From a virus (Duplodnaviria; Caudoviricetes), in IMG/VR virus record IMGVR_UViG_3300025133_000125, positions 1-57,157 of that record: a stretch of 57,157 nucleotides of DNA; one strand, 5' to 3'. Each line of letters opens with the position of its first letter. Within the stretch, counting starts at the first letter, position 1. The notes under the pieces were generated by a model. It made no database searches. It was not told the origin of the DNA and saw only the letters and a list, made by a program, of their open reading frames with translations. This document shows positions 3,001 through 48,150 of the stretch, one piece after another. The translations under genes were made by a program, and so were the position numbers.

Positions 3001-6000
3001 GTTATTTCACCTTCAGGTGTTACTTGAAATTTTGAAGATGAAATAAAGTACTGACTACTTGCATTACCCTCTAAATAAAACGAAGATCCTTGTTGTAATT
3101 TTGTACCATTAATATCAAAGCCTGCAATTTGTCCACTTGTTGCTGTAATATTACCTGTGATCTTAGCAGCTGAAGCAGTAATTTGTCCAGTAGAACCCTT
3201 TAACTTTAATACACCCACCTGGGAATCTATAGTGTTAGATATGTTAAATCCACCAATTGTTCCTGTACTTATATCTACATCATCAAAAGTACCAGTTGTT
3301 GCAGTAATATCACCTGTGATCTTAGCTGCTGATGCTGTTATTTGTCCTGATGCCTTTAATCGTAATCCCGTGTTTCCACTAGCACCACTTGAAGAGATCT
3401 CAGTTGATGTAATTCCAAAACCACCAATGGTTCCTGCTGTATTTGCAGTTATTGTATTAGCTATAATGTCACCAGTAATTGTTGCATCAGTAGCTGTTAT
3501 TGCACCTGCATGTGTAACCCTAAATGCCGGCGTTCCACCTGTCCCTGCTGTAAAGGCATAAGTTTGTCCTGAAGGGTGTATTCCTATACCTGTCGAAGTC
3601 AAACCTGTATTTGCTAAGGTAAAATTGGCTATATTGCCTGCTGTTGTTGCAGTAATTGTATTTGCTATAATGTCGCCTTGAATATTTGCTGAGGATGCAG
3701 TAAGTTGTCCAGATGCCTTAATATTAAATGGTGCACTACTACTTGCAGCAAGTGATGTTGCACCAGCAAAAAATCTTGAATCACCAGCTGAAGATAATCC
3801 TGTGTATGTAGGATCTGTAAAGTAATGTATTGTATCTGACTGAATATTCCAATTTGCGATATTACCTTCTGATGACGTTAATACACCTTCAATTTTTGCA
3901 CCACTTGCTATTAATTGTCCTGATGAAGATACTGCAAAATTAGATCCAAATCTTACATAATATGGATTTGAATTTGAGGGTGTGAAATCTAGATAATAGC
4001 CATCAGTTGGATTCGTGTCAGGGCCTGCATCTGACTTATATAATGCTGCTCCTTCTGCATCAAGAGTTGCATTAGAGCCGGATAATTTATTACCAAGTAT
4101 TTTCCACCCTGCTATTTGTCCTGAAGTTGCTGAAACAGCACCCGACATACTTACAGCAGATGCTGTAATTTGGCCTGTACTTTTTAAAATTAAATTATTA
4201 TTTGTAGAATTTATTTGTGAATCTGAAACACTAAAACCAGCAATTGTTGAAGCACCTTGTATTAGCGCGGCAGATGCTGTAATCTGTCCACTATCTTTTA
4301 AAATTAAGTTATCGTTTGTAGAATTTATTTGTGAATCTGAAACTTCAAATCCACCAATGGACGCGGATTTAAAACTTGCGAATCCTTGTGGATCAATAGA
4401 TGCTGATGCATTAGAAACTGTAGAAGGTGAGCCACCGATAGAAGCTGGCGTTCTAATATTATTTGCAGTTATGTCTCCTTGAACAGTTAATGTGTTCCCA
4501 ACATATTGAAGATAATGACCTGCAGATTTATTTCCTAATAATATTGAAGATCCTGTCATCTGACCTGATGATCTCAAAAATAATGAAGAATCTGATGATA
4601 TGATTGAGGTTGGATCTACAGTAAATCCTGCTATTGATGCTGACTTAAAACTTGCGAATCCTTGTGTATCAATAGATGCTGATGCATTTGCGTCAGTAGA
4701 AGGTTGGCCACCAATTGTTGCTGGCGTTCTAATATTATTTGCAGTTATGTCTCCTTGAACAGTTAATGTGTTCCCAACATATTGTAAATATTGACCATCA
4801 CCTTTGCTTCCAAGTATCATGTTACTAGCTGTTACATTACCCTTTGGTGTTAGATGAAAGTCAGATGAACTAATTTCTATATTACCACTACTACCACTTA
4901 TAAATTGTGATGTTGTAGTACCAACGAAAAAAGCATCTGCAATAACTTCAAATCTTGAAGGTATAGTACTAAATCTTAAACTTCCAGATTCACCTGCTAG
5001 CTCTAGACCAACACCGGCATAATCATCTCCTGAATCTGGTAAAACAGATCCGCTATAAATCATCCAACCAGTATTATTGTTACTTAAACTTGAACTTTTA
5101 AAACCTTGATACTGTACTGACCTTATAAATCCGGATCCGTCTGCTCCGGAGCCACCAGTCTCTGGTAATGTTGATGATACACCGCCCATCTGTATACCAC
5201 TTGATGTTGCGTCTCCGCCAATGAATAAAGACCCACCAATAGAATTATCATTTCCTAAAATATTAAGATTTTCACCTTCAAATTTTACACCGTCTGGGTT
5301 TGAGGGTAATGTTGTTACTACTGTGCTGGATTTATTATTATTTATATCATAAAATTCAAATGCAAAATCTAAATAATCTGGTCTAGTCTGAAGAGGAGGT
5401 ATTGGCGCAATTAATCTAACATATTCAGGGGAGAAATTTGTATCTGAGTTTGGTTTAACTGAAATTTCTGATACTGACCAATGACCACCTGTAAATCTCA
5501 TTTGCAATACAGCAGCTCCATCAGAATCAGGTGTAAATATAGTTTCATATTGTGGGCTTGATGCTCCTACTACACGCCCAGCTGAATCATTAAATTCAAC
5601 TTTACCAATTGCCCTTCCATAGCCTTTATCAGCAAAAGTATTATTTTGTGACATACCAAATGCAGATCCTGACATATGCAGTACTGCTTTAATTTTATTT
5701 TGTAAACCTTCAGAATTATCAGCAATTAATTTTGCACGGAAACTATATTCTGTTCCTGCTATAAAATCCATCTTAAAATCATCTTTTAATTGAAGCTTAA
5801 TCCACTCTTTATCATCATCTATCAATAAATCAGCATTTGATCCGGAGATGTAGATTGAATCTGTTAAGTATTCATTAGGAGAGTACGTCTGTATTGTTGT
5901 TGCTGACTCAGTACCATATTGACCACCTGTTGCAGTCCAGTATGATGTTAATACAGCATCAGAACTAAAAAATCCCATTCTAGATGTGCCAGATGTTGAT

Positions 6001-7127
6001 GTAGGATCAACTAATAGCTCGGGTGTTTCGATAGGCGTATCTATTATCTTTGACCAATTACCAAATGGACCATTATTTTTTACATAACCTGCTACTCTGT
6101 AAACATCGCCAGAAAATAATCGTAATTTTGAAAGCCTTACATCAGCAAATGATTTAAAATTTATACTGCTAGTATCATATTCACTTAATTTTGGCCAATT
6201 AATCTTATAGCTAGATGTTCCAAGCTCTGCCACTCTGTAAAATCCGCTTCCAGAATCGTAAACACCGAAAGGTTTTTGTACCTCTATTGTTTTCTTATTA
6301 ATAACATTTGATATTCTAGATGAATATCCTGGAATTATAGTGTTGCTCCCTGTAGAAAATGATATATTAGGGTTTGGTGCATCAATTGTGATTGTACCGC
6401 CAACCATAGATGATGAAAAATCAGCATCAGCTATTGTTATTGAGTATCGCGGATCTGTTGAATCATACTCTTCATAATTTCCCATAGGATTAAAGCCGTA
6501 AACTTGCTCAGAATAGTTTTGCACCTCTTGGTAGTTATCACCATCGATTGAAAAATTTGTTCCTTCTGTGCCTTGTACAGGTGTACCAACAATAGTACCA
6601 ACTGTTTGTTCATTTGATCCTGTTGTTGATGATTGTTGTGTAACTTGTCCCTTAATAATCTCATAGACATTCAATACTGGCCGCTTATAAAATCTTACGG
6701 GTCTATCATTCGGAATTGTCTTATTTACAGTAATTGTTCTTGTATATTTTACATTATACGTACCTTGCCATTGTTCAGGTATGTCAACATAATCCGGATC
6801 GAGCTCTCCTAATATTGTAAGTGTTGCTGCACCTGCTGGTGTATCTTTGAATACTTCTATTCCTACTCTTACTCCATTACTTTCTGAATAATCATAAACT
6901 GGCTCTATATAAATTGGGTTCCCTAAACTATCTACTAATTCGATTTTTAATACAACATCATTTAATAATTCAGGCGATCCCATTATTAGCATTGAAGACT
7001 TGCCCATAGGCAGTTCAAGTGGGAGATCTGTTATATTGAAGTACTTAGATAACAGCCCTTCTTCAATTTCATAGGCTTGTATTGTATCTAAGTCTTGCAG
7101 GAACGCTGTTTTTTGCTTTTTTGCCAT
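1..7127 (-). CDS. Giant tail fibre/receptor-binding protein, 3' end truncated by the window (>2370 aa); not in the ORF track
   Basis: ATG at 7127 (MAKKQKTAFLQDLDTIQAYEIEEG). The same frame is open at the spots I translated, down to the left edge (RYTHPTNLAGDDIGIDTGA). Contains repeated GQITASAAxIxGxI..GxIGGF units and the fibre-type motif LDADLLDGQHGSYY. ATATTTAT motif upstream. Confidence 0.85.
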   Translation of the reverse strand, partial: MAKKQKTAFLQDLDTIQAYEIEEGLLSKYFNITDLPLELPMGKSSMLIMGSPELLNDVVLKIELVDSLGNPIYIEPVYDYSESNGVRVGIEVFKDTPAGAATLTILGELDPDYVDIPEQWQGTYNVKYTRTITVNKTIPNDRPVRFYKRPVLNVYEIIKGQVTQQSSTTGSNEQTVGTIVGTPVQGTEGTNFSIDGDNYQEVQNYSEQVYGFNPMGNYEEYDSTDPRYSITIADADFSSSMVGGTITIDAPNPNISFSTGSNTIIPGYSSRISNVINKKTIEVQKPFGVYDSGSGFYRVAELGTSSYKINWPKLSEYDTSSINFKSFADVRLSKLRLFSGDVYRVAGYVKNNGPFGNWSKIIDTPIETPELLVDPTSTSGTSRMGFFSSDAVLTSYWTATGGQYGTESATTIQTYSPNEYLTDSIYISGSNADLLIDDDKEWIKLQLKDDFKMDFIAGTEYSFRAKLIADNSEGLQNKIKAVLHMSGSAFGMSQNNTFADKGYGRAIGKVEFNDSAGRVVGASSPQYETIFTPDSDGAAVLQMRFTGGHWSVSEISVKPNSDTNFSPEYVRLIAPIPPLQTRPDYLDFAFEFYDINNNKSSTVVTTLPSNPDGVKFEGENLNILGNDNSIGGSLFIGGDATSSGIQMGGVSSTLPETGGSGADGSGFIRSVQYQGFKSSSLSNNNTGWMIYSGSVLPDSGDDYAGVGLELAGESGSLRFSTIPSRFEVIADAFFVGTTTSQFISGSSGNIEISSSDFHLTPKGNVTASNMILGSKGDGQYLQYVGNTLTVQGDITANNIRTPATIGGQPSTDANASASIDTQGFASFKSASIAGFTVDPTSIISSDSSLFLRSSGQMTGSSILLGNKSAGHYLQYVGNTLTVQGDITANNIRTPASIGGSPSTVSNASASIDPQGFASFKSASIGGFEVSDSQINSTNDNLILKDSGQITASAALIQGASTIAGFSVSDSQINSTNNNLILKSTGQITASAVSMSGAVSATSGQIAGWKILGNKLSGSNATLDAEGAALYKSDAGPDTNPTDGYYLDFTPSNSNPYYVRFGSNFAVSSSGQLIASGAKIEGVLTSSEGNIANWNIQSDTIHYFTDPTYTGLSSAGDSRFFAGATSLAASSSAPFNIKASGQLTASSANIQGDIIANTITATTAGNIANFTLANTGLTSTGIGIHPSGQTYAFTAGTGGTPAFRVTHAGAITATDATITGDIIANTITANTAGTIGGFGITSTEISSSGASGNTGLRLKASGQITASAAKITGDITATTGTFDDVDISTGTIGGFNISNTIDSQVGVLKLKGSTGQITASAAKITGNITATSGQIAGFDINGTKLQQGSSFYLEGNASSQYFISSSKFQVTPEGEITGSNVLFSGGRIGGFDIGTSYLRDTDNTVELSSILPGLKIKDDGGVSRVEIKSGSLSTLGGGTQYCGNKSFEEQLGDLSAGRNFVSTINSWSFAEGGGVNISLTKRSAYPSEDMAVSGDVTLDVVVPEGSGNYSGNNTYELVQVVTSSVAIAAGDTLSFASVARYSSSFGGKGKDRALGPQYFRVEYSSSAGWVPFLPEAKFTASNGYGEYFLGSGQYSSFGASAEIPATATHLKLVLTGSINDDTGFQIEKPLFVGDKGSVNSDLHGRTFTKTVVGSSTAEYPETEITFDNFSIRSNTRKVELTQEGLLIYNSEDSFFKMSGAGIEFRGGSGLATFGSSISREQFTNDSQIAGSLGAPALQAYIADPEGIGTVSSDGNVAEYAKGNHRHILPFATINSVLSGQTITNGTWNSGLGSNAGALMDSELTSIADVKALDQSVISGASPTFGTANFTDASNKRLMTDAQETLLDSVESGATADQSAAEILTAIKTVDGALSALDADLLDGQHGSYYIDRGNHTGTQAASTISDFDTEVANNTAVAANTAKVTNVSTNLSVSRDSTKLDIVSSDGTNAVLPLADSSNWGVMSDEMFDKLDALQPGLSSATISGSWQGELSSSAITYIGGGVSGSLTSTGSFGHVIADGNIEVSQYIYHKGDDNTYLNFTPDRLRFNIGGISYIDLNDSSGAPHDITFNDGGNNVDVTIKGSSNNPLFKTDASANRIGTHGLGTPAVAFHIGGSELRVDGTISGSNYGGNVSGSSTSTGSFGKVFGDGSSLTGVTSYTDSDTLVFINSQGIFSGSAQIDHDATTNFAANEHFTQANITTVGTIGTGTWQGTAINQTYLVGQSGTNTGDTSITDSTSTTSSTTRASATGVKAAYDRGSTGITNAAAAQSTADSAVQPADTFYIGTTSIAHNRGSGDLTLAGLILTTPTIAAAGWVNANHTHAGSTTGGQIAASAVSDFDTEVSNNTTVVSAYNSGATRYTHPTNLAGDDIGIDTGA
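4156..4343. repeat. Intragenic direct repeat, ~74 nt x2, period 114 nt (38 aa)
   Basis: gcagatgctgtaat...tttgtagaatttatttgtgaatctgaaac at ~4156-4229 and ~4270-4343. Confidence 0.85.
4371..4784. repeat. Intragenic direct repeat, ~138 nt x2, period 276 nt (92 aa)
   Basis: aaaacttgcgaatccttgtg...gctggcgttctaatattatttgcagttatgtctccttgaacagttaatgtgttcccaacatattg at 4371-4508 and 4647-4784, including a ~65-nt identical block. Confidence 0.9.
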
Positions 7128-7236: not shown

Positions 7237-7416
7237 ATGAAAAGAGCTAGAATGTGTGTTTACTTAGATGTTGAACTATCTAAGTGGATTAAAGATAACG
7301 CAATAGTCAACTATAGAAGTTTTTCCTCGTTTCTTAATAAACTAATGTTAGATTATAAGGACGGAATGGAAATAAACAATAATGTAAAAACTTTAAAGAG
7401 CGAAATTAAAAGATAA
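7237..7416 (+). CDS. Ribbon-helix-helix (Arc/CopG-like) DNA-binding protein
   Basis: MKRARMCVYLDVELSKWIKDNAIVNYRSFSSFLNKLM fits a beta-strand plus two helices. GAAAGG precedes ATG 7237 (track start 7165 is probably too long). Fills an otherwise gene-free gap. Confidence 0.6.
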   Translation: MKRARMCVYLDVELSKWIKDNAIVNYRSFSSFLNKLMLDYKDGMEINNNVKTLKSEIKR

Positions 7417-10400
7417 TCTTACTATAGCCTTGTTCTTGCTTTATTTCAAGAAGAATATCCGTAAAATCTCGCATTGTGTCTATATGTGATATTATAAGAG
7501 AGAATTGATAAATATTTTTTAAATATTGGAACAGTTGGTATAATGAATTAAGATTGTCCGAGTCCATTGTTCCCCATCCTTCATCAATAGCTATAAAGTT
7601 AGGTCTTGGAAGATTTGATATATTTGTTAGGGCAATTCTGATAGCTAATCCTGAAATAAACTTTTCCATGCCTGATGCCATTTCTAATGCCCACGATTTA
7701 TCATTATCGTAAGCAATATAATTGTTTATATTCTTTCCGTCCATGTCAAAGATAATTTGGAAATCTACAATTTGTGATAGTATATTGTTGACCTCTAATT
7801 CAACCTTAGTTAAAACCTTAGATATTAAATCATAGCTTACACCATTTTTATCTACAGCCATTAAATAGTATTTATACGCTTCATATTTCTCTTCAAGATC
7901 TCTGACTCTATTAATAATCTGTACAATCTCTTGCTTTTTTGTTTCTAATGCTGATTTTTTACCGACATACTGGTGAATATCATTTACTACTGCTTTTATT
8001 TCTGTCTCAATAATTGACTCAGATGATTTTTGATCATTTATCTTTAATTGTACCCTATCATTATGCTTAATATCTTTTTGATAGCCTTTGCTTCTTTTAA
8101 TCTCATTTTTTATAGAGGAAATGTATGACTCAGTACTCTTAATAGCATCATTAATATCTGTTATTCTAACTTCATACTGCTCAAAGTATTTTTTGTTATT
8201 TTTTAGTTCCTTCGTCAAGTCTAAAAATTCACTATAAGACTTAGGTACATCCTCATTAATTTGTATTTTATTCTCTAGTGTCTTTAATTTTGCAACTGTT
8301 GATGTTGCCCTTGTCTTATCCTGTTCTAAATCTTCTTTTGTCTTTATTGCATCTTTAACAAATACATTATTCATGCAATACGAACACCCAGGATCGTAAT
8401 CCAAGTTTCCTAGCTTATCTATCTTATCTAATTTATTTCTTACTTCAACCTTTAAATTATCTATTTCGTTTTTTGCCTCATTCCTTTGTGATACTATTAA
8501 CTCATACTCAACAACCCTATTTTCAATATCCTTATATTTTTCAGATTTAATTCTGTTAGCTAAAATTTCATCATTTCTTTTAGTTTCACTTGATTCATCT
8601 TTTGTACTATTGAGCCTTTTTAATAATTCTACTTTTTTACCTTCCTCTAGTTGTTGGCTGTCTTCTAATTCTTTCAAGTCCTTAATTGTAGCATCAATTG
8701 GCCTCATTGTACCCATTAAATCTAAAATTTTATTCTTATATTTGTCTCGATCAATTTCTTTTTTGCTTTGAGAATCTTCAAGCTTTGTTATAACCCCTTT
8801 TACTAGATTTAGCTCAGTTTCAATATCACTTATTTGCTGATCATAATCTACATCTAAAAAATTCTTTAACATCGACTGTAATCCGCTAGATTCCTCTTTT
8901 GCCAGCTTATATAATTGATCAAAAATAGATAAGCCTAAAAACTTACCTAAAATTTCTTTCTTTTCAGTCTGATTTTGTTCTAAAAATATAGAAGAATTTC
9001 CTTGTGCTGAAAAACTTGTCATTATAAAGTCATCATACGTTCCTATCAGCTTTCTAATATTCTTATTTGTTGAATTTCTTTGATCACCATTTAATGATAC
9101 CTTCTTACCATCTTCTAGTCTGTAAAAATCAACATCAACACGAGTAGCACCGTGCCTTAAAACTTTTCCAACGCGTTTAATAACGTATGATTCGTTGCCA
9201 ACATCAAATTCTAACTCACAACTAAAGTTTGATTTAGAATGGTTCATGACATTTTCTGCCTTATATGCTCTTGTTGACTTATCAAATAGGCAAAATGCTA
9301 ATGCATCCAAAATACTTGATTTCCCACTTGCATTCGGGCTAAATAAACCAGCAATCCCATTACATCTTTCAAAATTAATTACATTATCTTCACCATAAGA
9401 AAACATATTGCTAAATGTAAACTTTTTTGGTTTCCAGCTAATATTTCTAGAAATCTCCTCACCTACTAAAGAGCTACTGAGCTCTTTATTAATTTTCTTT
9501 ACCTTTTCAATAATTTCTTCATTAGCTGTTGTATTATTTTTCAAGTATTGTTCTATTAAACCATTCTGCACATCTGGATCAAATACATCCCCAAAATCGA
9601 CTATAGATGAATTTCCTGTATCAACTCTATATTCATCTTCTCTTATTATTGAGACTTCTTTAATATTATGCCTGTGTTTGATTATTGTGAGTGCTTTTTT
9701 TAAATCAGAGCTTGATGTATTTTTAACTTTTATTCTTAATCTAGCTTTGGGTGGTAAGTCATCTACTTTTGGTACAAGACCATCTTCTATATGAAGAGTA
9801 TAATAACCAAATTCATTTTCTATTTCTTTATGAATAAATTTTCTCTTCTTGACATCCCAAACTGATATGCCGTGTCCTTTTAATGTTTCACCATGATTCT
9901 GTTGAACTAATGAACCGCAGTATCTTACAATAGGTTTTTTAATTTTACCAGGTTTATATTCTTGCATTGTTTGCATTTTATGAATATCACCTAACATCAC
10001 CATGTCATAACCATCAAAATCTTTTAATTTAACAGCACTTGGAAGATAGAAACCTAAGTCAGTTTGTGACTTATCAACTGTTCCGTGATATAATAATATT
10101 TTTGTTTTTGCATTGATTGTTGCTGGATCTGGTAAATTTGATTCACTATCTCTAACTTCTAATACAGCAAATCCAACATCACCTACATAATAAATCCCTG
10201 ACTCATTTAGATAATGTAAATTTTCATTTTTAATGTTCTCTACAATCGGCTGAAGTACATCTAATCTGGATCTGTTATTTAAATTACAATCATGATTTCC
10301 TGCAATTAATAATGTAGGACATAATTCAGATAAACGTTTAAACAATCTAGAAAGTTGATCAACTAATTCGGGTGACATATCAGTCTTACTATGAGCAATG

Positions 10401-10564
10401 TCACCGCCAATATAAACTACAGCATTTTCTGTATCTTTCTTTATAAACTCATATAAGTTTTCAAATACTTGCTCATATTCTTTATGGCGTTGTAAATTTC
10501 TAATTTGTATATCTGAAATATGATATATCTTTTTTAAGGTTCTAAATTTTGTTTTAATTTTCAT
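7406..10564 (-). CDS. Fused Mre11/SbcD nuclease + Rad50/SbcC ATPase (gp47-gp46-like)
   Basis: Phosphoesterase motifs HISDIQ, GGDIAH, GNHD, YHG, GDIH. Walker A PNASGKSS, Q-loop FSAQG, coiled coil with CSYC zinc hook, signature ASGMEK, Walker B IAIDEGWGTMD, H-loop IISH. Confidence 0.93.
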   Translation of the reverse strand: MKIKTKFRTLKKIYHISDIQIRNLQRHKEYEQVFENLYEFIKKDTENAVVYIGGDIAHSKTDMSPELVDQLSRLFKRLSELCPTLLIAGNHDCNLNNRSRLDVLQPIVENIKNENLHYLNESGIYYVGDVGFAVLEVRDSESNLPDPATINAKTKILLYHGTVDKSQTDLGFYLPSAVKLKDFDGYDMVMLGDIHKMQTMQEYKPGKIKKPIVRYCGSLVQQNHGETLKGHGISVWDVKKRKFIHKEIENEFGYYTLHIEDGLVPKVDDLPPKARLRIKVKNTSSSDLKKALTIIKHRHNIKEVSIIREDEYRVDTGNSSIVDFGDVFDPDVQNGLIEQYLKNNTTANEEIIEKVKKINKELSSSLVGEEISRNISWKPKKFTFSNMFSYGEDNVINFERCNGIAGLFSPNASGKSSILDALAFCLFDKSTRAYKAENVMNHSKSNFSCELEFDVGNESYVIKRVGKVLRHGATRVDVDFYRLEDGKKVSLNGDQRNSTNKNIRKLIGTYDDFIMTSFSAQGNSSIFLEQNQTEKKEILGKFLGLSIFDQLYKLAKEESSGLQSMLKNFLDVDYDQQISDIETELNLVKGVITKLEDSQSKKEIDRDKYKNKILDLMGTMRPIDATIKDLKELEDSQQLEEGKKVELLKRLNSTKDESSETKRNDEILANRIKSEKYKDIENRVVEYELIVSQRNEAKNEIDNLKVEVRNKLDKIDKLGNLDYDPGCSYCMNNVFVKDAIKTKEDLEQDKTRATSTVAKLKTLENKIQINEDVPKSYSEFLDLTKELKNNKKYFEQYEVRITDINDAIKSTESYISSIKNEIKRSKGYQKDIKHNDRVQLKINDQKSSESIIETEIKAVVNDIHQYVGKKSALETKKQEIVQIINRVRDLEEKYEAYKYYLMAVDKNGVSYDLISKVLTKVELEVNNILSQIVDFQIIFDMDGKNINNYIAYDNDKSWALEMASGMEKFISGLAIRIALTNISNLPRPNFIAIDEGWGTMDSDNLNSLYQLFQYLKNIYQFSLIISHIDTMRDFTDILLEIKQEQGYSKIIF

Positions 10565-26689: not shown

Positions 26690-29600
26690 TTATTCATTAC
26701 TGAAATCTACTGTTAAATTATTATTGTCCCCCTTCTTGTCAACCTTGACAGAATAGGGATTTGTTTCATAAATTTCCACTGCTTGTAGAACGCCGTCAGG
26801 TGATCTTGAGCCATCATTTTTACATCCTTCGTAAGCTAATCTAAAAAGCCCTGTATGACTGTTATAAACAGATTCGTACTCACTATACTGATATGATGAT
26901 GAGTATGCCAATCCTAACGATGCACTTAAAGATGATGAATAAAATGGTATCGTCTCTTTATTAAATGATGATTTTCTAGATGCGGTAATCATAGGTTGAA
27001 AATTTTCAAAAAATATATCAGATCCTCCAGCCATATAAACTTGAGAATCAGCATAGTCGCGAGCTTCTGACAAGGGTTCATCAAGTGGATCTTTACCAAA
27101 TCCTTTTAAAGTGGGCATATAGGTCATTGGCCCTTGCTCTGAATTAAATTTTTCTGTCTCAAATTCATCTCTACTTGATTTAATTGAACCAGTTTGACAT
27201 AATCCTATTGATACGTAATCATGTCTAGATCCTGTTGTTTTTCCTGTCAACACTGTATCAGAAATATTACCCGTTTTAAAATCATAAATACTTTCTGCAG
27301 GTATCGGTAAAACTGATGTTGATGCTGTGGAATATTTAAATAAACTGGTTGGCTCCGGATATGTTGCATCAATTTCTGCATTTTTAGCAATATCTTTGAA
27401 TATAGGTGGTGCTCCCATAACAACTTTTGGTCTTTCTAAAAGATGTGACTCTATTAATAAACCAATATTCTTTTTAGCACGAGCAGGAGCTAGTTTTCTT
27501 ATATGATCAAAAAGGCTAAGATCATAATACTTTATTAATTTGATATAATCCCAAAATCCTTGTCGTGTTGTCCATTTTTTCCAATATGTGTCTGTAATTC
27601 CATCTAAGTTACCATGTGTATATCGTTCCTCATACACGTCACGAGGATCCCCAATATATTTAGCAAAATCCAAGTCAGCAAGTGATAACATAATATCTTC
27701 ATTAATAACATCTGAAGGGGCAAAAAATACCCCCAATTTATTTGAGTCTAATCCAGCGTTATCAAATGAGCTTATCTCTACTCTTTCTGTAGGACTTAAA
27801 TTTGCTTTTCCTCCGTCTGGAGATTTGAGTGTAGCACTTTCAATTCTTATCTTATTAGCTTGTGAACCAAATCCTATTTTAGGAACAAAAGCCTTTTGTC
27901 TATCTGCTACATTGCTAAAATTAATTTCATCAGAGAATCCGGATCCAGTAACGTATACTTGACCATCTGTATGCGTGTAATCTTTTAACCCTTTGGGATT
28001 ATCATATAAGTTAATATAATCATCCATAGATAATCTAAAACTTAAATCATAGTATGATGAACTAGGATTGTTTCCATTAACTGCTTTGGGTGCACCAACA
28101 TGATTCCAAAATGCATTTGCATTAAGTGGTGTTGACCAATATCTAAACTCCATCATAGACCCACTAAATTGTGTACCTATACTACCATCAGCATTTCCAC
28201 CAAGATACCATCTATTAGCGGGAGTAGTACTACCTGTTGTGTACCATCCTGATAATGTACTTCCCGATACTGTCATGCTTCCTGATTCTTTTATTTTAAT
28301 TCGATCCATTCCTGCATCGTAATATCCAAGAAACATATCAAAACTTTGTGTAGTAGCAGTCAAATCATTATCAAAATATTGTTCAGTATAACTATCATCC
28401 ATAGAGCCTGTTCGTCTTCTAACCATTAATGACCAGTACTCGTTATTATAAATCCCATGATCAGTAATACTCATACTTTGCACACTGTCAGATCCGCTTA
28501 CAAAAAAGTTAATTTGCCCCTTGCCATCAATGGCCTGATCAGCAGGCCCAAGCACTGCTGTAGCAATTGCACCACTTCCCACAGAAGTATTCTGATGTAT
28601 TGTTATTGTGGGCGCGCTAGTGTAACCAAAACCACCATTTGTCACAGTAATTCCTGTAATTCTACCATTTGCAGGATTTACAGTCGGCGTTCCCGTGGCT
28701 CCGGAGCCTCCTCCACCAGAAAATGTTACCCAAGTTTCTAATGGCAAATAATCTGATCCTACCACGTCCATAGTCACACTACTTATAGGAGACCCAACTG
28801 TTGTCTTAAGATAAATTGCCGCCTCTGTTTTGCCATTACCATCGAGTTTATTTGCTAATATCTGATTTGCCTCATAAGGTGTTTTAAATCTCATTTCAAT
28901 AGTATCAGGTGCTTTTTCTTTTGATGTATGATACCACGGCACTTGAATAGATTGTCCTCCCTTAAAATCTAATGCCTTTGTAAATTTTTGTTTTATTTCA
29001 AAATCTGGTTCTCCTGTCGGTCTTGGGCCTCCGTATTCTTGTATTCTTAAAATAGAGGTTGGTATACCATAAGCAGAAAGTAATGCCTTTAAAGATTGTT
29101 TCGTACCTTTTGTTTTTAGCATATACGGCATTGTAGATAAAATTCTATTCCATATCTCCCTTGTTACATCTTTTTGTGATTTTTTTGTGTATCTGATATT
29201 ATAAATACCACTTTTAGAGCCAGATTCTGATAGACCTAAATGATATTGAGGAAGCGAAACAAGATCACGCCCTTCTATCATATCAAAACCAAGTGAGTTA
29301 GCTACTGGTTCTACTAATGCTTGTGAAATTCCTTTTGTTACATCTTCACTTCTATCATGAACATCTGATAATGCTTTTATATGCGTCCAAATAATATCGT
29401 AATGGTGTCCCATCATATCCATAAAATGTAAAAATTCTATATTTTCTCTATCAGTAGAAATATGCTCAGGTAAAAGATTAACTAATCTATTTCTATTATT
29501 TCTATCATAAAGACGTGCAGTGTCAGCTGCGCTACTATACCACTCTGTAAATTGAGAGCTGGTAACTGAATATAAAACATATGGACTAGTTAACGTTCCA

Positions 29601-32600
29601 TCTCCAGATATTTTTGGTGCACTGTTATCAAAAAATTCACCCAAAGAACTTGTTACATATGCTTCATGTTCAAAATACATATAATTTTCAAAATCATCAA
29701 AACCATTAATCACACTTCTAACAGAATTTTCCCATCTTCTTATTTCAGAAGCTGAGCCACTTACAGCTGATCCAGCTGTATTGAGTAAATAACCAGCAGA
29801 GTCACCTGTTCCACTCAATGATGCACTGTTTGCTTTATATGTTTCGATATTTGTTAATTTTATTTTAAAATTATTTATTCTCTTTTCTGCAGAACTAAAA
29901 TGAACAAAATTTTCATATTGCCTATAGTCTATATTAATATTAACATTTTCTAAGCTTCCACTTAAAATTCTATCTTCTAATTGATCCTTAACGCTTTGTT
30001 CATTGCCAATTAAATCAGTATGTGTTTTATATTCTGTTGCTCTATCTCTTATGGGTATTTCTACATCTGACCAGTTAGGTTGTCTTAAGACGGTTTCAGG
30101 TAATTTTTCTTCAATGAAAGGATTAAGATCAATTGTTTCTCTAAGTGTAGGTGTAACTTCTTCAGCAATAAAAACTGTATCAAGAGGTTCAATTCCAACT
30201 TCAAGTGGTTTTATTAATTTGTATGCTATGCTTCCTGGATATGTTTCAGAACTTATTGGCTTGAAATTTGTTATTAGTGATTTTGAATCATCATTCGGAA
30301 TAATATATGTATAAAGATTATCTGCATCTTTTGAGCGAAAACGAACAAAGTAATCATCAAGTGTAGTTGTTGATAAATTTACTGCGTCAGGTCCCGTCAT
30401 TACAGCATTAATTTCATTTCCATATTCTTCATATGATTTGTTTAGTATTAATTTTTTTTGTGTTTCTAAATCATTTTGAACATCTAAAATTTTTCCTTCA
30501 TATCTTGCATAAATATTTTCTGATCCACTTGGTTGTGATATATAGCCTACTGAAAACCCTGAATCAAATGATGAGTACTTATTGACGCCATAGCTTGATA
30601 CTATTCCACCTTGTTCTTCTGATGCTTCAGTATATGTTTTATCAACTTCAATTTGATTTTCATTGAATATATTTGTTATTGTAAATTCTAAAGGACCTAA
30701 TACAGCATTTTCCTGTACTTCAGGTCGATCTAGTGAACTCTTAATAATTGAAAGATCAAATTTATCTCCCCACACTGTACCAAAAGCCCCATAATGCCCT
30801 CTTACTTCTATAAAAATAGGCATGTCTAGTGCAAAAAAATCTGTAATTTCAAATTCTAAAGTTGCTTTTTCCCATTGATTATATTCCTGGCAAGGAGAAT
30901 GACTAATAGCACTTGGCCCTGAATTAAGTGCTTCTGTTCTATATGTTCTTCGATATAATGTTACATTTTCACCTTCAACCTCATATCTAGTAGACCAACT
31001 AATAGAGCCGCCTCCTTCATATCGTGTAGTCCAATCACCGTAATTGGTGCCACCAATATTTCTATTCCATACAAAGACACCGTCACTAGAAATATTTACA
31101 TTTGTTGGATAGTCTTCATAAGAAGGGTAATAGAGTTCAGCGGCTAAATACTTTGATCCGAGTTGACCCCCGGGCAAGGCGGTGTATGCAAACTTTCTAA
31201 AAGCATTTGGACTCATCTCATCTTCACCCGGCCATACTGCTGCATCTAATCTTGCCATTGTCCAATATCCAAAGTAATCATCAGTATAATTACTATCCGC
31301 ATTATATGAAAAGTCCCATTCATTTGTTGTTACCCAATACCACTTGAATGCTTCTGATTGTTCAATCTCGCCTGCATCAGTTATATAATCACCGCCAGCT
31401 CCTGATGCAGTAGGATTGTCTACGCCATATTGATCCAAAAAGGAAGAGACTTGATCTCCATCTGTATTCGCCCAATTGGGTTCTAAATCTACTGGTGCGT
31501 GATTATCACTATACGCAGCAAAATTATCTGGACCTCCATAGTGTAAATGAAATGCTCTATCCTCTGCCCAGACATCGTCATCTGTTACCATTAACGGTTC
31601 AGGTGGCGCTATGTCTGTTGCAGTCCAATGATTTATTCCTACCCATAATCCTTTTCTACCACCTTGTTCAAAATCAATAGGATCGGATTTTTGCATCCAT
31701 GTAACCAGAACTTTATCACCAGCCCTTACTCCATAAGCAGATAATGCGCCAATTCCTTTATAGTTTTTATTATTTATATTATCACCCTGATATGAGTAAA
31801 TTTGTAAATGTCTATGTGCATAATCATTTTTACTAGCAAGCACATCTTCACTTGGTACTACTTTTCCAAATGCATCTCCTGCGTCTCTTCTTGCTTGCAC
31901 CATTTGATCAAAAATATAATCTTGATAGTTTAAATCTGGAAAACACATTGCAACACCGCCGTCTACACCTTTACCTGCTTTCCAATGAGCATGATAACCT
32001 ATGTCTGCTGTGCCAACATAATATTGTGACCAAGCTAAACTAGATAATCCGTTACTCCATCGTCTAACATCCTTGTCAGTTGTCACCCTTATTGCTTGAC
32101 CATTTAATGCAGCATCTGGAAGATGATAATAATATGGAGATCCTCCTTCGTCTCTTTTTTCTTGATTATTTTGATGCACAACTGCGACTTCTCCACCCTG
32201 TGTTGGGTCTCCTACAGCACCATTTGCGGCCTGCATATCCCATTCATAAATTTTTTCACTTTCAATTTCAGATATTATAAAGTCAGATGATAAATCTAAA
32301 ATAGGATGTGCATCATTTATTATAAGTTTTCCACCAGCCATTATTGATTTAAATTCATCACCGTCTGCTAATTCACCAATTATAATTTTCCCATCAGGGT
32401 CATCAAATTTTAATATAGTATCTATTGGCTGTTCTTTAAATAATTCATCATTACTACCTTCTCTATGAAATGGTGTCAAGGTAACTCCAGGTTCTAATTG
32501 TGCTCCTGCAGTTAAAAAATATTTTGTGTTAATATTAGCTAAATTTGATGGGTCCCAATTATCTCTTGGTTCCCATATAATTCTTATTAACAGCTTATTA

Positions 32601-34120
32601 GATAGATTTGTATCTGATAATGTAAATGTAAAAGAGTGTCTTTGCCATTCACTCGTCAAAATAACCCACGAAGAGAATTGTGTTGATGATGTTACACCCC
32701 ATGGGTCAGCATGTGCCATGCATCTTAATTTATCTCCTGGTTCACCTTTTACATAACAACTAAATGTCATTGTATAATCTTCTACAATTATTCCTGGTGG
32801 TAATGGGAAAACTGGTGTAGTTTGAAATTGTAAATTACCATATATTGCAGATGATATTGCCAATGGCTCATTTTCACTTTTAGCACCACCGCCCTCTGTT
32901 CTTGGTAAATTTAGGTATGATGAGTCTAAATTCAAAGTATTCTGAAATATTGCCTTAATAGCAAATTGACCAGCTGGATTAGGATCTATAACATTTTCAA
33001 GTCTAAGTGCTTTTTTATCATCAAATTCTACAGCATCACCACTAAAATTGATCACACCATCATTTGGCCAATTACCCCCACTTCTCCAGCCAAATGTCGT
33101 TTCCATCGTCCTACCCTTTAATAAGTTAGGGGTTACTTCAAAAATATCTGTTGAGGGTTCAAATGATTCTTCTTCTCTAATTTCATCAATTATTCTTTTG
33201 CCCATAAAATATGCATTATTAATTCTAATAGTGCCGTTCATAAATGTCATTGGCATATTATTATTAGTATTAAATGATAAAATATTAGAAGAAGGATTTC
33301 CAAATGATGCAGCTGGTGTAGGATCTTCATCAGAGAACCAATTAATACAATTGTATGCAGCAACTCTAAAACTTTCTAAATATTCTTCATCATTAATAAA
33401 TGAAGGGGAAAGCAAAACCTCAGTTCTATCTCCTGAAATTTTTTGAATGATATATTTATTTTCCCTGGGAAAAAGCTTGTCACCCTCTACAGTTTCTGAA
33501 TCTAGATCATCTTGACTAGCATAAAAATATTCATCTGGTTTTTTCTCATAGTTACCATTAAATATTTTATCATTTTCATTAACTAAAACTGGAAAAGGGC
33601 TTCCAGCTTGTAATCTTAAAAAATCAAACTTAACTTTAAATCTTCCTCTTTTAAATCCAAGCTTTCGTAATATTTCTCCAGCGTCAATTGCTGTAATAGC
33701 GGGTTTTCCTGGCATTTCTTGATTAACATATGAGTTAATTTTATCATTTGTAACATATTGAGATGAAATTAAACTACCGTTATTGCCGTAAACACATACT
33801 CTAATTAGGTCAGCTTTGTCTGCGCCAAATGCAAGATCAGGCCACTTTAAAGAACCATATTGTTCATTTTTTAATTGATCATAAAACTCAACATCTCTAA
33901 ATGACTTATAATCAAGTGTATCTGGGCGCCTAATTAAATCATAAATCTTTTTAGGTATATCAACATCTCTATTAAGTTTTTGATCTACCAGACTATAATG
34001 TAAATCTAAGTCTAGCTTATCATCTTTAACTGTGCGAACAGAAGGCAAGCTTCCTTGAGCACCAGGGTTGCGACCCGATGGTGTCCTAGATTTGCCACTA
34101 TATTTTTGTGTTTTTGCCAT
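26690..34120 (-). CDS. Large baseplate wedge protein (gp7/gpI-like core) with carbohydrate-binding-like and LamG-like insertions
   Basis: LPEHI...LKTKGTKQSLKALLSAYG..LRIQEYG wedge motif; FSCYVKG..EWQRHSFTFT..GAQLEPG CBM-like segment; ITVTNGGFGYTSAPTITI; FSGSMMEFRYW; follows the gp6-like gene. Confidence 0.7.
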   Translation of the reverse strand: MAKTQKYSGKSRTPSGRNPGAQGSLPSVRTVKDDKLDLDLHYSLVDQKLNRDVDIPKKIYDLIRRPDTLDYKSFRDVEFYDQLKNEQYGSLKWPDLAFGADKADLIRVCVYGNNGSLISSQYVTNDKINSYVNQEMPGKPAITAIDAGEILRKLGFKRGRFKVKFDFLRLQAGSPFPVLVNENDKIFNGNYEKKPDEYFYASQDDLDSETVEGDKLFPRENKYIIQKISGDRTEVLLSPSFINDEEYLESFRVAAYNCINWFSDEDPTPAASFGNPSSNILSFNTNNNMPMTFMNGTIRINNAYFMGKRIIDEIREEESFEPSTDIFEVTPNLLKGRTMETTFGWRSGGNWPNDGVINFSGDAVEFDDKKALRLENVIDPNPAGQFAIKAIFQNTLNLDSSYLNLPRTEGGGAKSENEPLAISSAIYGNLQFQTTPVFPLPPGIIVEDYTMTFSCYVKGEPGDKLRCMAHADPWGVTSSTQFSSWVILTSEWQRHSFTFTLSDTNLSNKLLIRIIWEPRDNWDPSNLANINTKYFLTAGAQLEPGVTLTPFHREGSNDELFKEQPIDTILKFDDPDGKIIIGELADGDEFKSIMAGGKLIINDAHPILDLSSDFIISEIESEKIYEWDMQAANGAVGDPTQGGEVAVVHQNNQEKRDEGGSPYYYHLPDAALNGQAIRVTTDKDVRRWSNGLSSLAWSQYYVGTADIGYHAHWKAGKGVDGGVAMCFPDLNYQDYIFDQMVQARRDAGDAFGKVVPSEDVLASKNDYAHRHLQIYSYQGDNINNKNYKGIGALSAYGVRAGDKVLVTWMQKSDPIDFEQGGRKGLWVGINHWTATDIAPPEPLMVTDDDVWAEDRAFHLHYGGPDNFAAYSDNHAPVDLEPNWANTDGDQVSSFLDQYGVDNPTASGAGGDYITDAGEIEQSEAFKWYWVTTNEWDFSYNADSNYTDDYFGYWTMARLDAAVWPGEDEMSPNAFRKFAYTALPGGQLGSKYLAAELYYPSYEDYPTNVNISSDGVFVWNRNIGGTNYGDWTTRYEGGGSISWSTRYEVEGENVTLYRRTYRTEALNSGPSAISHSPCQEYNQWEKATLEFEITDFFALDMPIFIEVRGHYGAFGTVWGDKFDLSIIKSSLDRPEVQENAVLGPLEFTITNIFNENQIEVDKTYTEASEEQGGIVSSYGVNKYSSFDSGFSVGYISQPSGSENIYARYEGKILDVQNDLETQKKLILNKSYEEYGNEINAVMTGPDAVNLSTTTLDDYFVRFRSKDADNLYTYIIPNDDSKSLITNFKPISSETYPGSIAYKLIKPLEVGIEPLDTVFIAEEVTPTLRETIDLNPFIEEKLPETVLRQPNWSDVEIPIRDRATEYKTHTDLIGNEQSVKDQLEDRILSGSLENVNINIDYRQYENFVHFSSAEKRINNFKIKLTNIETYKANSASLSGTGDSAGYLLNTAGSAVSGSASEIRRWENSVRSVINGFDDFENYMYFEHEAYVTSSLGEFFDNSAPKISGDGTLTSPYVLYSVTSSQFTEWYSSAADTARLYDRNNRNRLVNLLPEHISTDRENIEFLHFMDMMGHHYDIIWTHIKALSDVHDRSEDVTKGISQALVEPVANSLGFDMIEGRDLVSLPQYHLGLSESGSKSGIYNIRYTKKSQKDVTREIWNRILSTMPYMLKTKGTKQSLKALLSAYGIPTSILRIQEYGGPRPTGEPDFEIKQKFTKALDFKGGQSIQVPWYHTSKEKAPDTIEMRFKTPYEANQILANKLDGNGKTEAAIYLKTTVGSPISSVTMDVVGSDYLPLETWVTFSGGGGSGATGTPTVNPANGRITGITVTNGGFGYTSAPTITIHQNTSVGSGAIATAVLGPADQAIDGKGQINFFVSGSDSVQSMSITDHGIYNNEYWSLMVRRRTGSMDDSYTEQYFDNDLTATTQSFDMFLGYYDAGMDRIKIKESGSMTVSGSTLSGWYTTGSTTPANRWYLGGNADGSIGTQFSGSMMEFRYWSTPLNANAFWNHVGAPKAVNGNNPSSSYYDLSFRLSMDDYINLYDNPKGLKDYTHTDGQVYVTGSGFSDEINFSNVADRQKAFVPKIGFGSQANKIRIESATLKSPDGGKANLSPTERVEISSFDNAGLDSNKLGVFFAPSDVINEDIMLSLADLDFAKYIGDPRDVYEERYTHGNLDGITDTYWKKWTTRQGFWDYIKLIKYYDLSLFDHIRKLAPARAKKNIGLLIESHLLERPKVVMGAPPIFKDIAKNAEIDATYPEPTSLFKYSTASTSVLPIPAESIYDFKTGNISDTVLTGKTTGSRHDYVSIGLCQTGSIKSSRDEFETEKFNSEQGPMTYMPTLKGFGKDPLDEPLSEARDYADSQVYMAGGSDIFFENFQPMITASRKSSFNKETIPFYSSSLSASLGLAYSSSYQYSEYESVYNSHTGLFRLAYEGCKNDGSRSPDGVLQAVEIYETNPYSVKVDKKGDNNNLTVDFSNE

Positions 34121-43760: not shown

Positions 43761-44272
43761 GCATTCTCCTGTGCCCATGGCATTTTTATAATATAACAAC
43801 CTTCAAACTTATAAGGTTGAACATGTTTTGACTCTAAAATATCTACTACATTTACCCACTTAGGATTCATAGTATCTCGAACCTGATAAATTCCATCCTT
43901 TTCATCAGCCCCTTTAAGTAAAATATAATCACCATAATCAAATGGGCCTCCCCATCTTTTCAATAAATTTCTAGAAAGTGCAACAAACTTATAATTTGAT
44001 GCCTTATCTATTCTAATTTTTGTACCATCTGCTGTGATGTCGGGCGTCTTATCTGTTTGTGGAAAGATTGGTTGATACATAGTTACATCTACTTCAATTC
44101 CATATTGATAAAATTCATCCAGTTGATATTGTAGATTCTGTTTTTCACTTACCAGTGTCTCATAATGAGTGTGATAAATTTCTCTATGCTTTTTCATAAA
44201 ATAAGTAGATACGTAACCATTCATTACAGTGATAAAGATAATTAACAATATGTACTTTTGTTGATTTAGCAT
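43757..44272 (-). CDS. Membrane-anchored 3D-domain (MltA-like DPBB) peptidoglycan-active protein
   Basis: N-terminal TM; VTMY..TADG..VALSR..VRDTM..VDIL; AAGGAG SD before ATG 44272. Confidence 0.75.
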   Translation of the reverse strand: MLNQQKYILLIIFITVMNGYVSTYFMKKHREIYHTHYETLVSEKQNLQYQLDEFYQYGIEVDVTMYQPIFPQTDKTPDITADGTKIRIDKASNYKFVALSRNLLKRWGGPFDYGDYILLKGADEKDGIYQVRDTMNPKWVNVVDILESKHVQPYKFEGCYIIKMPWAQENA

Positions 44273-44292
44273 GGCGTGCTCCTTTTGATTAA

Positions 44293-44327
44293 TAGAATCT
44301 AATAACATTTTGGTATACGCGTAAAGG
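44293..44327 (-). promoter_or_regulatory. Putative sigma70-like early promoter
   Basis: A-tract-CCTTTACG-N18-TAGATT-CTA; near-identical copy at 49482-49516. Confidence 0.6.
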
Positions 44328-44348
44328 CTTTTTTTCATTTATTTTTTG

Positions 44349-44766
44349 TGGACCCGGGGAGATTCGAACTCCCGTCCGGCCTGCTATTAACAATGAGTCG
44401 TTACAGCTTAGACGGTTTCCATTGGTAGAAACTGCCAAACAACCATGCGAATTCCTTTTGCTCAGAACATATTCCTTAACTGGCTTTTAGTTATACTCCA
44501 AATCACCAACGAGTTTGTGTTCAACTTATTTTATGCTCGGGTGTTGAACAACCCAAGAACTTAAGCAGCGTATGCGTAAGTTGGCTGGTGAGCCAGCTCA
44601 GCGCCAATATATGGTGCTGAATCAGTATCGGCCAAATGCCAATCTATCACCAACCCGTCTAGCGAATTATCGCCATATTGGTTTTGTGAGTCTTTTTTCA
44701 CGAGACCTACTCAATCTCTGCTGCACTCATTTGTCAAAAAACACCCGTCGATTTCCATACGGGCCC
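44349..44766 (-). ncRNA. ssrA: tmRNA (one-piece, ~418 nt)
   Basis: 5' GGGCCCG pairs with 3' CGGGUCC(A) and includes G3.U. T-arm GGGAGUUCGAAUCUCCC. pk1: GAGAUU/GGUCUC + GAGU/ACUC. pk2: CUUGGGU/ACCCGAG + UGUUCAAC/GUUGAACA. Tag frame ends YAYAA-UAA. Confidence 0.95.
44561..44674 (-). other. tmRNA tag reading frame (A)GDNSLDGLVIDWHLADTDSAPYIGAELAHQPTYAYAA
   Basis: Open frame between pk1 and pk2; resume codon inferred from its distance to pk1. Confidence 0.75.
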
Positions 44767-44780
44767 ATATCTTTTAATTT

Positions 44781-44921
44781 TTAATTATCCCAGCCTTCTG
44801 ACCACTGGCTAATATCTTCATCTGTAACTCTTAAATCTTCTAATAGTAACTCAACTGCTGCCCAATCTTTGTCCGATATTGCAGCTTCTAAACGCATAAT
44901 TATTTCTTCAACTGAAAGCAT
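44781..44921 (-). CDS. Small acidic hypothetical protein (likely start 44921; frame open to 45029)
   Basis: GAGGAG SD before MLSVEEII. Confidence 0.55.
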   Translation of the reverse strand: MLSVEEIIMRLEAAISDKDWAAVELLLEDLRVTDEDISQWSEGWDN

Positions 44922-45030
44922 ATGACTTACTCCTCTCTTAGTTGAAGCTAAATATGGATAATCTACTAAATTTAAACTAGTTGCTGACGTATTTTTAGGG
45001 TCAGCAGCCCACGGTAATATAACTTTCATT

Positions 45031-47394: not shown

Positions 47395-47545
47395 TTTTCT
47401 TGTTCCTCTCGGCTCCAAAAATCTTTTCCCAATTTTCAGCATACTTTGATTGACTTCCGCGTCTTTTATCACCCTTACCAGCATCAGAATATTTTTTTGT
47501 TACCTTTGGTTCCTCTTTTTTTTGTGAAGATTTTTTATCACTCAT
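47384..47545 (-). CDS. Small basic protein (53 aa; not in track)
   Basis: [53 protein letters not shown]; ATGA overlap with the def stop. Confidence 0.65.
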
Positions 47546-48150
47546 AGACAACACTTTTTATATTTCTTACCACTACCACAATGACAAGGTTCGTTACGAC
47601 CAGTTTTCTTTTTACTTACTATTGGTTCTGGTTTATTTTCTCTGTCCATAATAGTTTTACCGTTTAGGTGATCAATCTCATGTTGAATGCAAACTGCTTC
47701 TAATATTCTTTGTTCTTGATCTTGCTTGTGTCTATCTTTTTCCCACGATCCTTTACCTTCTTCACCACTTTCTTCTCCGCTAAAATACCAACCACTTTCT
47801 TCTTGTTCAGTTTTTATTATTACATTTTTATATCGTTTAGTGTGAACACCTTTTTTTGGAAATGATAAACAACCTTCATAATAATCTATCTCATCCCATT
47901 GTTCTTCAATGACAGGATTAATTAAAATAATCGGCTCCCGAACATTAACCACAGCAACAGAAGCATCAATCCCAACTTGATTAGCAGCAAGACCAATGCC
48001 ATCCTTCCGCTCTGCGAGGATAGTGAATAAATCTTTCGCAATATGTAGTCCTTCATCTACTGATACCTTTCGTAGTTTTTTGTTAATGACTGGATTGTCA
48101 TTCTTAAAACAATCTATTACTTCATGTTGATGATATGAAAATCTAGTCAA
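47542..48150 (-). CDS. def: Peptide deformylase with C-terminal SEC-C motif
   Basis: [24 protein letters not shown]; C-terminal [18 protein letters not shown]. Confidence 0.95.

Follow-up and report, generated by a model that had tools for sequence, protein, structure and literature searches.

Tags added by transfer-messenger RNA (tmRNA) are normally about ten residues long. The 57,157-nucleotide (nt) stretch of DNA analysed here (hereafter the window), a record of the IMG/VR virus database (IMGVR_UViG_3300025133_000125, Caudoviricetes), holds a tmRNA gene (ssrA) for which a preliminary description, made from the letters alone, proposed a tag of 37 residues. The locus raises the question whether so long a tag frame is selected as a peptide, and whether the tag belongs to the phage or is the copy of an unusual host tag. 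As described below, the tmRNA machine itself is of the known kind, and what sets it apart is its very long tag, which is specific to the phage and contains two conserved modules.

A one-piece tmRNA conserved among viral contigs

The sole Rfam match in the window was to the tmRNA family RF00023. The full-length model (1-374 of 374) matched the minus strand at 44346-44766 with 74.5 bits (E = 3.8e-27), the gathering score of the family being 47 bits. Reading of the sequence placed G1 at 44766 and the discriminator A at 44349, giving an RNA of 418 nt, and genomic CAA stands at 44348-44346 where CCA would stand, so that CCA is not encoded. The preliminary description, which did not state the strand, had given about 418 nt and CAA in place of CCA, and both proved exact. 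Its tRNA-like domain with G3·U and its two pseudoknots were likewise upheld by the full-model match, by reading of the sequence (Table 1) and by the covariation described below. The architecture is not the two-piece (permuted) one, since the match covers the whole of the standard model and the two termini of the RNA pair as the acceptor stem.

IMG/VR was searched by three pattern scans using the T-arm stretch, the tag region and the helix-5 region, the last of which ignores the tag. The T-arm scan gave 14 contigs, and all 14 had RF00023 matches (410-435 nt, 62.6-81.8 bits). The tag-region scan gave 98 stretches, and the profile made from the first alignment matched 98 of the 99 sequences searched, while 44 of the 111 stretches given by the helix-5 scan were new loci. 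The family comprises 142 viral contigs besides the window, with 100 distinct sequences among the complete copies.

In the alignment of these 100 distinct sequences, the named helices were 92.9% paired, compared with 31-45% when the partners were slid, and changes on both sides were found in 25 of the 39 helix pairs. None of 500 shuffles reached the observed values for cells paired, for pairs and cells changed on both sides, or for the covariation score, and 21 of the 500 reached the observed value for further pair types. Helices 2 and 3, which make up pseudoknot 1 (PK1), were 86% and 80% paired, with both-side changes in 7 of 9 pairs; helices 6 and 7 of the helix-5 knot were 100% and 98.9% paired, with such changes in 7 of 14 pairs, and helix 8 was 100% paired. 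Among the 98 unique sequences that were parsed, G1-C, G2-C and G3·U were kept in all, the acceptor stem had its seven pairs in 97, with covariation at pairs 4-6, and the T stem had its five pairs in all 98, in several pair types with compensatory changes. The length from G1 to the discriminator in this set was 399-443 nt (median 416), and the tail after the discriminator was CAA in 81, CTA in 10 and CCA in 3. All the sequence and structural features of a tmRNA are present in this RNA and have been preserved by covariation.

The preliminary description had suggested two programs as checks. The search with RF00023 gave the match above, and ARAGORN found nothing in the window. ARAGORN also called no tmRNA in a complete 216-kb relative (described below), and within the family it found 51 of 103 members and missed 52, with the tags always cut to 11-25 residues. 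Because the complete relative and more than half of the members were missed as well, its silence in the window was not counted against the gene. A survey of tmRNAs in cultured phages, which lists few marine one-piece tmRNAs (PMC9004378), and a study of huge phages (PMC7162821) both relied on ARAGORN. Surveys of this type undercount the present family and mis-describe its tags, and this may explain the absence of earlier reports; in the literature searched, supplementary tables excluded, no report of long-tag phage tmRNAs was found, and the tables of PMC9004378 could list relatives.

The tag frame and its conserved modules

The 37-codon tag frame that had been proposed, GDNSLDGLVIDWHLADTDSAPYIGAELAHQPTYAYAA, was confirmed, as the frame was open in all relatives. 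It was open in 15 of 15 T-arm relatives, and in the tag-blind helix-5 sample all 102 loci with enough upstream sequence had GLxxDW and a frame open until just before helix 5. In each of the 38 new tag-blind loci that include the tag region, the motif was spelled with codons outside the search pattern. The family holds 94 distinct tag peptides of 34-43 residues, together with one of 49 that has lost its stop, and the insertions and deletions in the tag are multiples of three. Over the first 16 codons, the nucleotide diversity at codon positions 1, 2 and 3 was 0.14, 0.09 and 0.33, respectively. The ratio of nonsynonymous to synonymous polymorphism (pN/pS) at codons 6-16 was 0.295 in the tag frame, compared with 0.71 and 0.69 in the other two frames. 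The stop codon was TAA in 68 and TAG in 5 of 73 sequences. The tag frame is under selection as a peptide, and the amino-acid-level conservation that the preliminary description had put forward as a check is present.

The start of the tag is fixed by several features. The spacer from PK1 to the resume codon is 11-12 nt in the family, and three distinct tmRNA sequences have an in-frame stop one codon 5′ of the resume codon. The resume codons are GGC in 62, AGC in 7, GGT in 3 and GAG in 1 of 73 sequences, and resume codons for Gly, Ser and Glu are recorded from bacteria (PMC1168896). In 72 of 73 unique relatives, the nucleotide at position -4 is an A, and the sole exception has an extra codon; in E. 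coli, this position sets the frame (the A86 ruler; PMC2481249).

The preliminary description had itself raised the case that translation resumes far downstream, so that the true tag would be short, with 11-25 residues. ARAGORN, where it calls a family member, reports tags of this length from internal codons. However, codons 6-16, which show the low pN/pS, lie 5′ of every ARAGORN start, and the assigned resume codon has both the usual distance from PK1 and the A at -4. In the two closest called relatives, the ARAGORN start (tag beginning with DTDSAP) corresponds to the GAT after TTGGCC in the window, which is without the -4 A. A short tag is thus very improbable, and no far-downstream resume codon was seen.

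Inspection of 93 distinct tags showed that L5, G7, L8, D11 and W12 are invariant and that at least 90% of the tags share S4, I10, H13, L14, A15, Q30, P31, Y33, A34 and A36. This gives two conserved modules, GLxIDWHLA in the N-terminal part and QP[TS]YAYA(A) at the C-terminus; the linker between them varies, is acidic and contains many D, E, Y and P residues. The net charge of the tags is -3 to -9 (median -7), and K and R are absent from 66 of the 94 distinct tags, as they are from the tag of the window. Of the 94, 40 terminate in YAA and 36 in AYA, so that 76 have one of these two endings. AlphaFold run on the alignment gave a low-confidence, mostly extended or disordered model (predicted local distance difference test score 63.6) with one helical turn at residues 12-15, which agrees better with a linear docking motif than with a fold.

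Gene callers annotate hundreds of small, mostly unnamed open reading frames (ORFs) on the sense strand across the tmRNA family. A search with the tag motif gave 366 matches, and the 120 listed were ORFs of 77-122 amino acids (aa), nearly all unnamed and mostly on short contigs; among these 120, no Pfam domain and no longer real protein with the motif was found. We read the ORFs with the tag motif as miscalled over the tmRNA. A 70-aa ORF on the plus strand of the window (44572-44784), antisense to the tmRNA, is almost certainly spurious.

Table 1. Features of the tmRNA locus in the window
Feature	Position	Strand	Basis or remark
tmRNA gene (ssrA)	44346..44766	-	RF00023, sequence read, family covariation
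Acceptor stem, 5′ strand GGGCCCG, includes G3 of G3·U	44760..44766	-	pairs with CGGGTCC
PK1: GAGA/TCTC crossed by TGAGT/ACTCA	44687..44718	-	sequence read, covariation
Single-stranded spacer CAAAACCAATAT, 12 nt, PK1 to resume codon	44675..44686	-	A at 44678 is position -4
Tag frame, 37 codons, resume codon GGC: GDNSLDGLVIDWHLADTDSAPYIGAELAHQPTYAYAA	44564..44674	-	open in all relatives, coding signature
Small hairpin GCGA-UAAU-UCGC, includes resume codon	44662..44673	-	kept in 91 of 100
Codons 7-15, motif GLVIDWHLA	44630..44656	-	peptide conservation
Codons 30-37, QPTYAYAA, hydrophobic C-terminal module	44564..44587	-	peptide conservation
Stop codon TAA of tag frame, foot of helix 5	44561..44563	-	sequence read
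Helix 5 stem CTTGGGT/ACCCGAG; loop GTTCAAC pairs with downstream GTTGAAC to form a pseudoknot (pk2)	44519..44557	-	covariation
T arm GGGAG-TTCGAAT-CTCCC, acceptor 3′ strand CGGGTCC, discriminator A	44349..44373	-	sequence read
Upstream neighbour, small acidic protein, 82-aa ORF	44781..45029	-	stop 14 nt before G1 of tmRNA
Downstream neighbour, 193 aa, hydrophobic N-terminal segment	43757..44338	-	ATG 7 nt past tmRNA

A proposed role for the long tag

The locus was also found in RNA libraries. In 14 marine DNA runs, 45-99% of the sampled words of 44100-45000 were present, compared with only 13-33% in six RNA runs, and in four of the RNA runs the contigs covered only 44338-44765, the depth being zero at 44100-44316 and 44782-45000. 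Pieces free of any difference from the window were obtained from RNA libraries at 44403-44740, 44415-44584, 44555-44646, 44617-44733, 44418-44546 and 44586-44679. Since these pieces span the tag, the tag region is present, unspliced and unedited in RNA libraries, where the evidence consists of assembled contigs and so speaks for presence only, not for strand, ends or level, with DNA carry-over possible.

We consider it reasonably probable that the gene encodes a working one-piece phage tmRNA whose two-part, 37-residue tag steers tagged host fragments to degradation under phage control. The gene would be transcribed together with its tightly packed neighbours, and host RNase P and 3′ nucleases would excise the RNA, whose end would be completed by the host CCA-adding enzyme. 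Host alanyl-tRNA synthetase (AlaRS) would charge it with alanine via G3·U, and host SmpB and EF-Tu would deliver it. During infection, it would rescue ribosomes stalled on broken messages, adding Ala and the 37 residues. The hydrophobic end, QPTYAYA(A), would feed an AAA+ protease, while the invariant and partly helical GLxIDWHLA, 15-25 residues upstream across the acidic, disordered linker, may dock an adaptor or a second protease, e.g., Lon. As the outcome, tagged host fragments would be captured and recycled under phage control, which is the weakest step of the scheme.

The reliance on host factors comes from the following searches. Neither the window nor the complete 216-kb relative contained a match to the SmpB family (the control was positive in 10 bacteria), and no member of the ClpP and Lon families was found among the 223 of 233 ORFs (at least 70 aa) scanned in the complete relative, the ten excluded ORFs being those that cross the boundaries of the segments scanned. 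Because SmpB was not found in the phage, the RNA must use RNase P, the CCA-adding enzyme, AlaRS, SmpB and EF-Tu of the host.

Compared with a standard one-piece tmRNA, such as that of E. coli with the tag ANDENYALAA, the phage RNA is alike in the tRNA-like domain with G3·U, in PK1, in the resume codon 11-12 nt further on with A at -4, in the stop at helix 5, in the further pseudoknots and in the hydrophobic end of the tag. It differs in that the tag has 34-43 codons instead of about 10 and contains a second, invariant internal peptide motif, and in that the gene is phage-borne with no SmpB gene found and rarely encodes CCA (3 of 98 family members). From PK1 to the stop, the window tmRNA measures about 126 nt and the 43-codon members about 144 nt, and the mRNA-like domain is given as 48-126 nt in a survey of 2005 (PMC1168896).

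Two cellular systems offer analogies for a tag with more than one determinant. In the SspB and ClpXP system of proteobacteria, an upstream determinant for the adaptor and a C-terminal determinant for the unfoldase stand in one tag. The phage tag is similar in having two separate determinants, which, however, are 15-25 residues apart, whereas those of the SspB/ClpXP tag lie within 11 residues. Mollicutes are without ClpXP, and the tags of their cellular tmRNAs, about 27 residues long, contain several recognition elements and have an end of the aromatic-Ala-aromatic-Ala type. To our knowledge, they are the only known, or the only well-studied, example of a long tag that goes with a switch to another protease. 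The extended ssrA tags of Mycoplasma and Mesoplasma are reportedly degraded by Lon, in work that we associate with Gur and Sauer in 2008 and with Ge and Karzai in 2009. The likeness to the phage tag is limited to the length and the aromatic-Ala ending; the phage tag is phage-borne, longer and strongly acidic, and its motif was unrelated by the tests made. With its two conserved modules on either side of a variable acidic linker, the extension would most simply be a two-part degradation signal, and this is its most likely function, with the extended Mollicutes tag as the nearest precedent.

Known phage tmRNAs are those of the mycobacteriophages of the Bxz1 group and of Bacillus phage G, and the two-piece tmRNAs of Melnitz and the pelagimyophages. 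Compared with these, the window tmRNA is of one piece although marine, has a long conserved tag and showed no blastn similarity to any of 50,697 GenBank phage records. For the tmRNAs of large lytic phages, the published accounts note no obvious phage SmpB and propose roles in the upkeep of translation and the recycling of host protein (PMC4131195; PMC9004378). In the literature found on known phage tmRNAs, there was no discussion of tag length. Separately, we noted an unrelated 447-nt tmRNA (72 bits) in the 484-kb uncultured phage LR756508.1 (92434-92880; L103:1501-1947), in which one frame is open to GVNNADYESAGFTAEDFAQMDGESLYHGSERKPAAV before TAA. This may be another long phage tag, with a putative length of about 36 residues, and suggests that further phage lineages also have long tags.

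Several points weigh against a degradation tag used by a working tmRNA. About four in ten tags end in AYA instead of AA, which is not the classic ClpX ending, and a long tag costs time at each rescue, so that a plain degron would not need one. The proposed role of the extra residues in binding an adaptor or protease is drawn by analogy, and no candidate partner gene was found beside the tmRNA in the neighbourhoods compared. The first five codons lie in the hairpin at the resume codon, all four pairs of which are kept in 91 of 100 unique relatives with few compensatory changes (GC to AU, CG to UA), and therefore the conservation of these codons reflects in part selection on the RNA and not on the peptide. 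To these come the failure of ARAGORN to call the gene in the window and the nature of the RNA-library evidence given above.

Some of the same observations would also suit an upstream motif that is not a degradation signal at all, serving instead to hand the tagged chain over to a phage factor, to keep it soluble by its charge, or to shield it from host proteases, with the freeing of ribosomes as the main benefit. The upstream motif is conserved more strongly than the C-terminal end, the tags are acidic and mostly without K and R, and many of them end in AYA. The phage also carries Hsp20 and peptide deformylase, and thus already invests in the handling of nascent chains. On the other hand, the hydrophobic Y-A-Y-A(A) end is similar to that of ordinary degradation tags, among them ADYGYAAAA, the tag found in metagenome-assembled genomes (MAGs) that have phage-like contigs. 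Furthermore, no partner gene is linked to the tmRNA, and the 120 listed matches included no longer real protein with the motif. We regard a non-degradative motif as rather unlikely, though it deserves some weight.

Beyond the degradation scheme, we propose tentatively, with doubts that exceed our confidence, that the phage rewrites the output of trans-translation by adding an acidic tag of 35-43 residues to every stalled host chain, GLxIDWHLA of the tag docking a dedicated phage partner or a host partner other than ClpXP. Because the tag is long enough for the motif to clear the exit tunnel before termination, capture could be co-translational. If this were true, the virus would control the fate of truncated host proteins, by targeted recycling, sequestration or protection.

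Carrier phage, neighbouring genes and the host

The window has a completeness of 31% (CheckV), and almost every long ORF is on the minus strand. Its genes include those for baseplate gp25 and gp6-like proteins, primase, ATP-dependent DNA ligase, Hsp20, thioredoxin and a fused SbcD/SbcC-like nuclease, so the preliminary view of the tmRNA as phage-borne holds. The 216-kb relative is T4-like, is rated 100% complete and has T4-type capsid, terminase, sheath and gp32 genes. The carrier of the tmRNA is a large uncultured T4-like marine phage. Neither the tmRNA nor the surrounding 20 kb had a blastn or megablast match among GenBank phages. When the baseplate protein was compared, the nearest phages in culture were Microcystis phage Mel-JY01 (48%) and Flavobacterium phage immuto (39%), neither of which has a tmRNA above threshold.

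The tmRNA is tightly packed between its neighbours and is probably excised from a longer transcript. Homologues of the upstream neighbour, to which no Pfam or PHROG family was assigned, lie directly 5′ of the tmRNA in 55 loci, and those of the downstream neighbour lie 3′ of it in 68. The sole match of the downstream protein was phrog_21574 (function unknown), with no Pfam match; on visual inspection, it resembles a cell-wall-type domain with a membrane anchor. Its size suggested SmpB, but this was rejected because there was no SmpB match. A promoter and terminator scan gave 13 sites compared with 13.5 in shuffles, i.e., no excess, and one weak predicted site just 5′ of the tmRNA (44811-44784) proves nothing.

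Contigs with a phage-type tmRNA were also found in three MAGs, as would be expected if the present contig were bacterial or chimeric and the tmRNA a cellular gene. Against this, the window comes from the IMG/VR virus database and has baseplate and replication genes, phage genes flank the tmRNA at distances of 14 nt and 7 nt, its neighbours are the same in 55-68 viral loci, and the complete relative has the T4-type structural genes named above. The 7,552-base contig of one MAG, moreover, shares a DruA-like gene with that complete phage relative. A cellular origin of the contig is hardly credible.

The preliminary description had considered that the tag might simply copy an unusual host tmRNA, in which case it would tell little of phage biology. 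Phage tmRNAs and tRNAs are described as often host-derived (PMC9004378). The question was examined with the tag profile over 802 genomes of two phyla and with a nucleotide pattern of the tag region over one genome per species in 185,579 species. The pattern gave 21 matches, about the level of chance, and only two of them were tmRNAs, both on MAG-binned contigs (736 and 7,552 bases). The profile matched 0 of 401 Bacteroidota genomes, and the positive control recovered four of four known holders. In the second phylum, to which one of the MAGs itself belongs, 401 genomes gave two strong matches, both on short MAG contigs and one of them new (the third MAG), and one further weak match (E = 0.008 over 15 positions). 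By blastn of the tmRNA against 301 Bacteroidota genomes, only stretches of 25-43 bases were found, in eight genomes, six of them at the T arm.

All three MAGs have an ordinary short-tag tmRNA of their own besides the phage-type contig, and in the two MAGs of one phylum its tag is ADYGYAAAA (9 residues). The gene content was examined for the 7.5-kb contig, the other two MAG contigs being too short to judge; its genes recur in the complete phage relative, and besides the DruA-like gene it contains a PNKP-phosphatase gene. Because the tag occurs only on phage-like MAG contigs among the genomes searched, and the own tag of two of these MAGs is ADYGYAAAA, a copy of a host tag is unlikely within those genomes. 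In favour of a copy, the peptide-level search covered only samples of two phyla, and the own tmRNA genes of the two MAGs of one phylum, like the phage family, do not encode CCA (tails ACAA and ACTA). Weighing these points, we hold that a host-copied tag is improbable, and the preliminary suggestion was not borne out.

The lineage of these two MAGs is a possible host. Both are marine and low in G+C (L143 G002:C11; L206 G616:C62), with a G+C content of about 33% around the tmRNA of their own. That they share the Y-x-Y-A-A ending and the tails with the phage family fits weakly with this lineage as the host, and binning of contigs into MAGs is weak evidence of a host. Beside the own tmRNA of one MAG lies a gene for a protein similar to C25 peptidases, and the clusters nearest to it are found most often in Cloacimonadota, Bacteroidota and Ignavibacteriota. 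As unusual cargo, the complete relative encodes a 930-aa TonB-dependent receptor with CarboxypepD_reg and Plug domains (L120:4538-7330), which is a possible clue to the host. The combination of a TonB-dependent receptor with a carboxypeptidase-regulatory-like domain is typical of the same broad group.

Other genes of the phage and its relatives were noted in passing. About 3 kb from the tmRNA, the window encodes a peptide deformylase with a fused SEC-C zinc motif at its C-terminus (47542-48150, minus strand; L120:12605-13198 in the complete relative), which is conserved in 41 loci and is a second phage gene acting on nascent chains. The complete relative also encodes an 88-aa protein with an Smr domain (L118:5851-6117). 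Smr nucleases cut mRNA at collided ribosomes, giving substrates for tmRNA, and a link between this protein and the phage tmRNA is speculation. DruA-like proteins, of the Druantia defence family, are encoded at L120:16235-17437 in the complete relative and at L141:3914-5107 on the MAG-binned phage-like contig. The fused nuclease of the window is an ORF of 1052 aa (7406-10564, minus strand) with a calcineurin-like phosphoesterase (SbcD/gp47-like) N-terminus and an SMC/SbcC-like ATPase, and the usual two-gene SbcCD nuclease appears to be fused here into a single ORF. Two giant ORFs, both on the minus strand, had no Pfam match (3-7127, at least 2375 aa; 26690-34120, 2476 aa). The complete relative further has two SET-domain proteins and a tubulin-tyrosine-ligase-like ATP-grasp protein (L119:13508-13987, L118:9884-10330 and L119:12570-13523). 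Its radical-SAM and sugar-modifying genes form large islands.

Taken together, the marine phage tmRNAs of this widespread clade have retained a tag of three to four times the usual length, in which a motif is more conserved than the degron end. The phage thus seems to decide how unfinished host proteins are labelled, and the purpose of phage tmRNAs, so far unclear, becomes testable through one RNA gene. The family is also a sharp marker, at the nucleotide and the peptide level, for uncultured large marine phages, and may help to find their host.

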